From NCBI RefSeq assembly GCF_003334315.1, contig NZ_QOWR01000130.1: a stretch of DNA of 648 bases; one strand, written 5' to 3'. The translations under genes were made by a program, and so were the position numbers. The notes under the pieces were generated by a model. That model was not told the DNA's origin and ran no database searches. It was given only the letters and a program-made list of their open reading frames with translations. Shown in pieces: positions 1-648 of the stretch (positions are counted from its first letter, which is position 1; every line of letters begins with the position of its first letter). This stretch comes from Escherichia coli (GTDB lineage: Bacteria > Pseudomonadota > Gammaproteobacteria > Enterobacterales > Enterobacteriaceae).

Positions 1-438
1 AGGCCGCAGTCGGTAACCTCGCGCATACAGCCGGGCAGTGACGTCATCGTCTGCGCGGAAATGGACGAACAGTGGGGCTATGTCGGGGCTAAATCGCGCC
101 AGCGCTGGCTGTTTTACGCGTATGACAGTCTCCGGAAGACGGTTGTTGCGCACGTATTCGGTGAACGCACTATGGCGACGCTGGGGCGTCTTATGAGCCT
201 GCTGTCACCCTTTGACGTGGTGATATGGATGACGGATGGCTGGCCGCTGTATGAATCCCGCCTGAAGGGAAAGCTGCACGTAATCAGCAAGCGATATACG
301 CAGCGAATTGAGCGGCATAACCTGAATCTGAGGCAGCACCTGGCACGGCTGGGACGGAAGTCGCTGTCGTTCTCAAAATCGGTGGAGCTGCATGACAAAG
401 TCATCGGGCATTATCTGAACATAAAACACTATCAATAA
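1..438 (+). CDS. insB: IS1 transposase InsB reading frame (C-terminal part of the InsAB' frameshift-fusion transposase); 5'-partial at window edge
   Basis: Frame 1 is open from position 1 ([145 protein letters not shown]) with a TAA stop at 436..438. The ATG at 61 reported by the ORF track is an internal methionine. From established knowledge, InsB is expressed as InsAB' via a -1 frameshift at a site just upstream of this window, not from that ATG. Confidence 0.92.
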
Positions 439-453
439 GTTGGAGTCATTACC
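431..453. repeat. IS1 terminal inverted repeat (right end, IRR), ~23 bp
   Basis: The IS1 terminus GGTAATGACTCCAACTTATTGAT appears as its reverse complement at the element boundary. The exact inner limit of the IR is approximate. The insB stop codon lies inside it. Confidence 0.8.
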
Positions 454-648
454 CCAAACATCATATAATAATTGATATAAATTATACAAACCCAAAGGAT
501 CCATCCTTATTATCGGATTCAGTGGGTAATTATACAGGTTCCATCCCCCCTCCAGCCCAATGGGGTCTTGTGTAATATACCGCCCCTGCAACGGATCGTA
601 GTACCGGTGACGGTTATAGTACAGCCCTGATTCCTCATCATGCTGCTG
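454..648 (-). pseudogene. Rhs-family (YD-repeat / RHS repeat-associated core domain) protein, 3' end of core plus first 11 codons of the C-terminal variable region; interrupted by IS1, 5'-partial at window edge
   Basis: Minus-strand translation from 648, with no stops: [65 protein letters not shown]. This contains the hallmark Rhs core terminus ([10 protein letters not shown]...GRYI(T/S)QDPIGL...NLYxYxxNP....DPxGL), with [10 protein letters not shown] encoded at 487..516. The frame runs directly into IS1 sequence at 453. GC-rich core-like codon usage at 541..648 gives way to very AT-rich sequence at 454..~500, as expected at a core/toxin boundary. Confidence 0.85.

Follow-up and report, generated by a model that had tools for sequence, protein, structure and literature searches.

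What has become of the toxin end of a rhs gene when its reading frame runs into an insertion sequence only a few codons after the conserved core? The question is raised by 648 nucleotides of Escherichia coli DNA (contig NZ_QOWR01000130.1 of assembly GCF_003334315.1; the whole stretch is called the window), in which the right end of an IS1 element abuts the end of an Rhs core encoded on the minus strand. The features of the window are the following.

1..453, plus strand: the 3' 453 bp of IS1 (IS1 positions 316-768), 99.8% identical to the complete 768-bp IS1 of EC09.
1..438, plus strand: the C-terminal part of the insB' transposase frame, open from base 1, with the stop codon TAA at 436-438.
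373..453, minus strand: continuation of the rhs frame through 26 IS1-encoded codons, with the stop codon TGA at 373-375.
431..453, plus strand: the right terminal inverted repeat of IS1, with the reverse complement GGTAATGACTCCAACTTATTGAT, the same as the end of the EC09 IS1.
454..462, no strand assigned: CCAAACATC, the 9 bp beside the IS1 end, which would be one copy of the target-site duplication if the transposition was simple.
454..486, minus strand: the first 11 codons of the toxin tip, 15% GC, 100% identical to the intact allele.
487..516, minus strand: the PxxxxDPxGL motif at the core end, read from the translation, with DPLGL at 487-501.
487..648, minus strand: the final 54 codons of the Rhs core, by match to TIGR03696 (RHS repeat-associated core domain) and NF041261.

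The left part of the window is IS1, as an earlier note on this DNA had named it. Positions 1-453 match the IS1 copy of EC09 (L002:5686-6453) with 1 mismatch in 454 nt (99.8%), the terminal inverted repeat is that of IS1, and the ORF at 61-438 (+) matches the profile NF033558 (transpos_IS1) with an E-value of 1.5e-36 and 126 bits (cutoff 100), over positions 100-199 of 199, the C-terminal half of the profile. As a 9-bp target duplication fixes the ends of the EC09 element, the window can be numbered against it: bases 1 and 453 are IS1 positions 316 and 768, and the first 315 bp of the element fall outside the window. Compared with IS1 of the IS1A/IS1B type, the window shares the inverted repeat, the InsB frame and the 99.8% identity, and its AT-rich target agrees with the published preference, whereas it holds 453 bp of an element that, when complete, has 768 bp with insA, a frameshift site and a left inverted repeat. 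Among 5,426 complete E. coli genomes, thousands of records match the IS1 part at 99% identity or more. The element is multi-copy: a genome has a median of about 11 places that match, rhs matches counted in.

The right part, 454-648 on the minus strand, is an open frame of 65 codons, of which 54 belong to the core and 11 to the tip. Residues 1-54 match TIGR03696 with 73.6 bits (cutoff 32.5; E 1.4e-20) over profile positions 22-76 of 76, the check by which the earlier note had proposed to establish that this frame is an Rhs core end. They also match NF041261 (RHS_core) with an E-value of 6.7e-31 and 107 bits over positions 1208-1261 of 1261, a score to be read against a whole-protein cutoff of 2000 bits, as the fragment covers only the last 54 positions. 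Both profiles end at L54, which places the core end at window position 487. DPLGL marks the boundary between core and tip, since the family profiles stop there and other alleles diverge directly after it; the note had assigned this role to DPxGL and the assignment stands, but its motif coordinates need correction, as 487-516 encodes the ten residues PxxxxDPxGL and the leading N lies at 517-519. All 195 nt outside IS1 are 100% identical to genes annotated as 'RHS element core protein' in many E. coli genomes, a length and identity by which the Rhs assignment is far beyond chance. The gene is seen here as 65 codons only and runs on past the window edge at 648; a full-length Rhs protein has about 1,400 aa, with a long YD-repeat shell upstream, and a relative with the identical 195 nt (CP53) has a full-length rhs CDS of 4,209 nt.

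An aspartyl-protease plug closes the Rhs core and cuts the chain after the L of DPxGL. In Tse5 of Pseudomonas aeruginosa, for which a structure is solved, D1141 and D1164 are catalytic and cleavage falls between L1168 and I1169, after the L of DPxGL (PMC10684867). The window has the equivalent residues, the Asp of QDPIGL at 565-567 and that of MDPLGL at 499-501, both intact, together with the DPxGL motif. By their spacing and by analogy with Tse5 we infer that they form the aspartyl-protease pair, and on the same analogy self-cleavage is expected after the L at 487. Tse5 serves solely as a mechanistic model for the core end: its organism and its N-terminal region differ, and its tip has no sequence similarity to the intact tip described below.

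What the gene looks like when uninterrupted can be read from its relatives. About 110 complete E. coli records carry the 195 nt at 99% identity or more, many of them at 100%. The rhs gene of CP53 (L001:5599-9807) directly follows vgrG and encodes a tip of 144 residues after DPLGL; its neighborhood, narI-yddE-nhoA-yddH-pptA-ydcC ... rhs-vgrG, is syntenic with that of K-12 rhsE and is the RhsE locus. The same placement of vgrG directly upstream of rhs is found in EC09, ATCC 8739 and PEC240. From these relatives the chromosomal site of the window is inferred to be of the RhsE-locus type. Rhs genes in general have a core ending in PxxxxDPxGL, a low-GC variable tip and a small downstream ORF (PMC2935791). 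The RhsE-locus protein is a clade I, vgrG-linked T6SS effector, for which K-12 rhsE (b1456) is the reference pseudogene. The window shares with the annotated genes of this locus the identical 195 nt and the PxxxxDPxGL core end, and the intact allele adds the low-GC tip and the small downstream ORF; the tip is intact there, while in the window it is cut by IS1 after 11 codons, so that the window holds no complete variable tip followed by an immunity gene. The GC content is 63.5% in the core, 40.9% in the tip of the intact allele and 15% in window 454-486.

The locus carries other mobile DNA as well. Downstream of the tip and immunity region, CP53 (L001 5073-5171) and EC09 (L002 5199-5297) retain a diverged IS1 remnant, annotated as a 99-nt partial transposase. 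Its conservation in both points to an older visit of IS1 to the RhsE locus; the remnant gave no blastn match to the IS1 of the window (E <= 1e-3). At the edge of the RhsE locus of ATCC 8739 a group II intron (ltrA reverse transcriptase/maturase) adjoins a truncated ISAs1 (H-repeat) transposase (L004 1042-3344), and the same locus also has two orphan Rhs tip fragments with a small ORF after each.

Alignment of the window with the intact allele of CP53 defines the junction. The intact allele reads ...TCATCATG followed by CCAAACATCA, and the window reads ...GTCATTACC followed by CCAAACATCA, so homology begins exactly at 454. With the inverted repeat ending at 453, the boundary between IS1 and rhs falls at 453/454, where the earlier note had drawn it. 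From DPLGL downstream to the IS1 end there are 33 nt (11 codons), in agreement with the 11 remaining tip codons (454-486) counted in that note. As the intact tip has 144 residues after DPLGL and 11 are left, 133 of them are cut off from the gene by IS1; the note had called the toxin domain severed or replaced, and by this comparison it is severed.

Minor observations at the junction concern its sequence and its regulatory content. The 12 nt displaced by IS1 (L001 5989-6000, TGAATCATCATG) match the IS1 end at 442-453 (GGAGTCATTACC) in 7 of 12 positions. Homology between targets and IS1 ends was reported in older work on target choice by IS1 and Tn9; the likeness seen here is weak and may be due to chance. 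A weak hairpin with a T-poor tail, returned by the scan for terminator-like patterns, spans the IS1/rhs junction at 440-457 (-) (TTGGGGTAATGACTCCAA) and is probably fortuitous. Terminator-like patterns numbered 2, both weak, against 0.5 expected and were treated as chance, as was a sub-threshold Rfam match to sR33 (16.7 bits, gathering score 37). No promoter-like site was found in the window.

In its intact form (L001 5599-6033, -) the severed tip has 144 aa, 16% of them Gly, with several small-xxx-G-xxx-small motifs. Its first 14 residues, YNLY[QE]L[LI]YDVWHDD, are conserved in the few homologues, all of them Rhs-linked, and tip homologues were found only in E. coli, Citrobacter (C. sedlakii) and Enterobacter. 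By this conservation the 11 residues in the window are the true start of a tip family, and the intact tip is a putative, uncharacterised glycine-rich Rhs toxin family. It gave no match in Pfam or NCBIfam and no sequence match in the PDB at E<=10. An AlphaFold2 model built on a shallow alignment of 13 sequences consists mostly of beta strands with a mean pLDDT of 52.5, a value so low that no fold is claimed. P0127 is a predicted 231-aa protein on a Logan contig of 1,549 bp that joins an N-terminal PapD-like pilus-chaperone domain (PF00345) to tip residues ~28-144 at 100% identity; it is either an odd chimera or a misassembly.

Downstream of the tip, in a region of 28.6% GC, lies the immunity candidate. 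Removal of IS1 and one copy of the duplication from EC09 restores an ORF of 131 aa with a lipoprotein-type signal peptide (MKKYIFLVLFLLCGC...), annotated as dsORF-e4. Two 'hypothetical proteins' of CP53 (61 and 69 aa; L001 5193-5587) are dsORF-e4 split by a 1-nt poly-A shift, either a genuine frameshift or an error in sequencing the homopolymer. The candidate has no match in NCBIfam, and against Pfam only weak matches to DUF5851, DUF3887 and DUF4019. Its putative location in the envelope, together with the Gly-rich tip, suggests a toxin that would act on the membrane or in the periplasm. Our guess, from the 16% Gly and the lipoprotein-like immunity candidate, is a glycine-zipper pore-former of the kind proposed for Tse5.

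How did IS1 come to lie at this point? The explanation that we consider probable is a simple transposition of IS1 into the AT-rich start of the tip; it would have been a recent event, with the target in the first 30 nt, where the sequence is extremely rich in A and T. AT-rich DNA is the preferred target of IS1, which generates duplications of 8 or 9 bp, and in mutation-accumulation lines IS1A made 233 new insertions compared with 43 recombination or deletion events (PMC5009759). The event looks recent because the 195 nt show no substitutions relative to the intact allele; the IS1 part differs from the EC09 copy by 1 in 454 nt. Among five comparable IS1 copies, four are flanked by perfect 9-bp duplications.

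EC09, L002 5686-6453, duplication CACAATAAA: IS1 within the immunity candidate dsORF-e4, in the signal-peptide codons.
PEC240, L024, duplication CATGTTAAG: IS1 within an ISAs1 element.
ATCC 8739, L004, duplication CGGGGCCGT: IS1 9 codons past DPLGL.
806883 (806883-9-2019), L005, duplication TAAATTCAT: IS1 3 codons past DPLGL.

A simple insertion makes definite predictions for the DNA to the left of the window. A second CCAAACATC, the rest of the tip and dsORF-e4 should lie just past the left end of IS1, some 315 bp beyond window position 1. Toward IS1 the order would be ...TATGAATCATCATG (the tip continuation), then CCAAACATC, then the left end of IS1, GGTGATGCTGCC; read outward in the minus-strand sense, CCAAACATC (or its 8-bp form) would be followed by ...CATGATGATTCATATGG.

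The junction itself appears to be confined to this lineage. The window and a 70-nt junction probe found two-piece or diverged matches only, and no exact junction, in the 5,426 complete E. coli genomes. Junction patterns of 33 nt and 27 nt were absent from GTDB representative genomes and JGI metagenome contigs, and the exact junction was absent from the plasmid collection. A 20-nt pattern returned 17 loci, all of them chance matches of 20-35 nt in unrelated organisms. In the protein collection, the chimeric Rhs-IS1 tail met no identical tail junction, only other Rhs fragments truncated by IS1.

Deletion, recombination and larger rearrangement are, taken together, an unlikely origin of the junction. 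The most serious of them, which by itself we also regard as unlikely, is an IS1-mediated adjacent deletion or an IS1-IS1 recombination, by which the 133 tip codons would be gone and no target duplication would exist. The deletion would have run from the right end of a pre-existing downstream IS1 into the tip, or a second, nearby IS1 would have inserted and then recombined. EC09 offers a concrete starting point: it has the same rhs allele and a 768-bp IS1 in the same orientation (1 of 454 nt different) whose right end lies 451 bp farther out, and one adjacent deletion from that arrangement would yield exactly the junction of the window. IS1A hops locally and its deletions occur mostly between nearby copies, and this behavior, with the 43 recombination or deletion events, also speaks for a deletion (PMC5009759), as does STEC388, where an IS1 at an Rhs tip lacks a duplication, so that not every IS1 copy at a tip is a simple insertion. 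Against this, the arrangement of the EC09 type occurs in one listed genome among the roughly 110 records with the allele, so the ancestor that a deletion needs is rare; insertions exceed deletions by about 5 to 1 in the mutation-accumulation lines (PMC5009759); and four of the five neighboring IS1 cases are simple insertions. A deletion would place the dsORF-e4 sequence ...CCACACAATAAA (the EC09 flank) or other non-tip DNA at the left end of IS1.

Improbable, in our estimate, is a structure in which the IS1 forms one side of a larger, IS1-bounded cargo segment, or has taken part in an IS1-IS1 inversion, with unrelated DNA beyond it and the rest of the tip kilobases away. The precedent is STEC388 (L003), in which a 3.56-kb IS1-stb-IS1 segment interrupts a different Rhs tip 12 codons past DPLGL. 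The segment (2891-6453) consists of inverted IS1 copies at 2891-3658 (-) and 5686-6453 (+) that bracket the gene for the heat-stable enterotoxin, stb (ST-II), and IS256/DDE remnants. It replaces 11 bp (AATGCAAATAT) of the tip at the metJ-rpmE locus and has no target duplication; past the second IS1 the tip continues, as a DUF4329 fragment. This is one case among five, however, and nothing in the window hints at such a structure. A misjoin of the contig through the repeated IS1 is very improbable: although IS1 is multi-copy and the junction is absent from every other record searched, the join unites the last base of the IS1 inverted repeat with the start of perfect homology, as is typical of a real insertion junction, and a misjoin inside the IS1 repeat would still leave a genuine junction of IS1 end and rhs.

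The consequence of the truncation for the protein can be outlined. With the upstream rhs gene intact, the Rhs shell with both catalytic Asp would still be made. The truncated Rhs would probably still cleave itself after DPLGL and release a 37-residue hybrid peptide and no toxin; as this peptide would replace the toxin, the T6SS effector is presumably disarmed. IS1 would also interrupt rhs-driven transcription into the immunity gene.

These observations describe an ordinary gene inactivation by known elements, and the interruption of a rhs variable end by an insertion sequence is already known. That it is not a new system had been the view of the earlier note, and the comparisons bear it out, as the components are known at 99.8-100% identity and the arrangement occurs in genomes already annotated, for example ATCC 8739. 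The arrangement also agrees with what has been published on Rhs cores whose tips are displaced or decayed (PMC2935791). The proper annotation is an IS1-disrupted rhs pseudogene of the RhsE-locus type, and the strain should be scored as being without this T6SS toxin, though the immunity gene may remain. The junction of the IS1 end with CCAAACATC, absent from the collections searched, can serve as a lineage-specific typing marker. Beyond annotation the case carries little weight; the destroyed tip family, of which the window holds 11 codons, is of more interest.

Other IS1 copies at Rhs tips allow a comparison with the window. In ATCC 8739 (RhsE locus), 806883-9-2019 and STEC388 (metJ-rpmE locus), IS1 has the same orientation, with its right end facing the core, and lies 9, 3 and 12 codons after DPLGL, respectively, compared with 11 in the window. 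In ATCC 8739 and 806883 the remainder of the tip is annotated across IS1, and two of the three cases are divergent IS1 variants, with 94.8% and 93.6% identity. Their tips and insertion points differ from those of the window, which argues for independent events. EC09 differs in kind: its tip is intact and its immunity candidate is interrupted by IS1, and the rhs gene itself is split by ISEc1. STEC388 stands apart for the enterotoxin gene parked inside an Rhs toxin tip.

Independent IS1 ends at 3, 9, 11 and 12 codons past DPLGL, in three different tips and all in one orientation, might be taken to mean that the first 10-40 nt after DPxGL, where the GC content falls from ~63% to ~15%, are a preferred landing site. 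On that view IS1 would repeatedly switch off T6SS Rhs toxins, with a bias in orientation, and would also supply a mobile stretch of homology that assists tip exchange or the entry of cargo, as with the IS1-stb-IS1 segment of STEC388; the window would be a further instance. We consider this doubtful. The cases of IS1 at a tip came from queries that return window-like arrangements only, which is an ascertainment bias. An IS1 end no more than about 800 bp from a core end was observed in 33 genomes against ~14 expected, where the observed genomes are not independent and the expectation is a rough one (~8 IS1 copies, ~4 core ends, a joining distance of 820 bp, one orientation and a 5-Mb genome). 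With this bias, and with 33 against ~14 in genomes that are not independent, an IS1 hot spot at Rhs tips is not supported.

Truncation by IS1 has left its mark on Rhs proteins in the protein collection. The partial E. coli proteins P0001-P0004, P0007, P0008, P0016 and P0044 end in the same 26-residue IS1 read-through peptide, with fusion points from about 25 codons before DPxGL to 44 after it. As these points vary around the boundary of core and tip, the proteins stem from separate IS1 hits, all with one orientation and frame.
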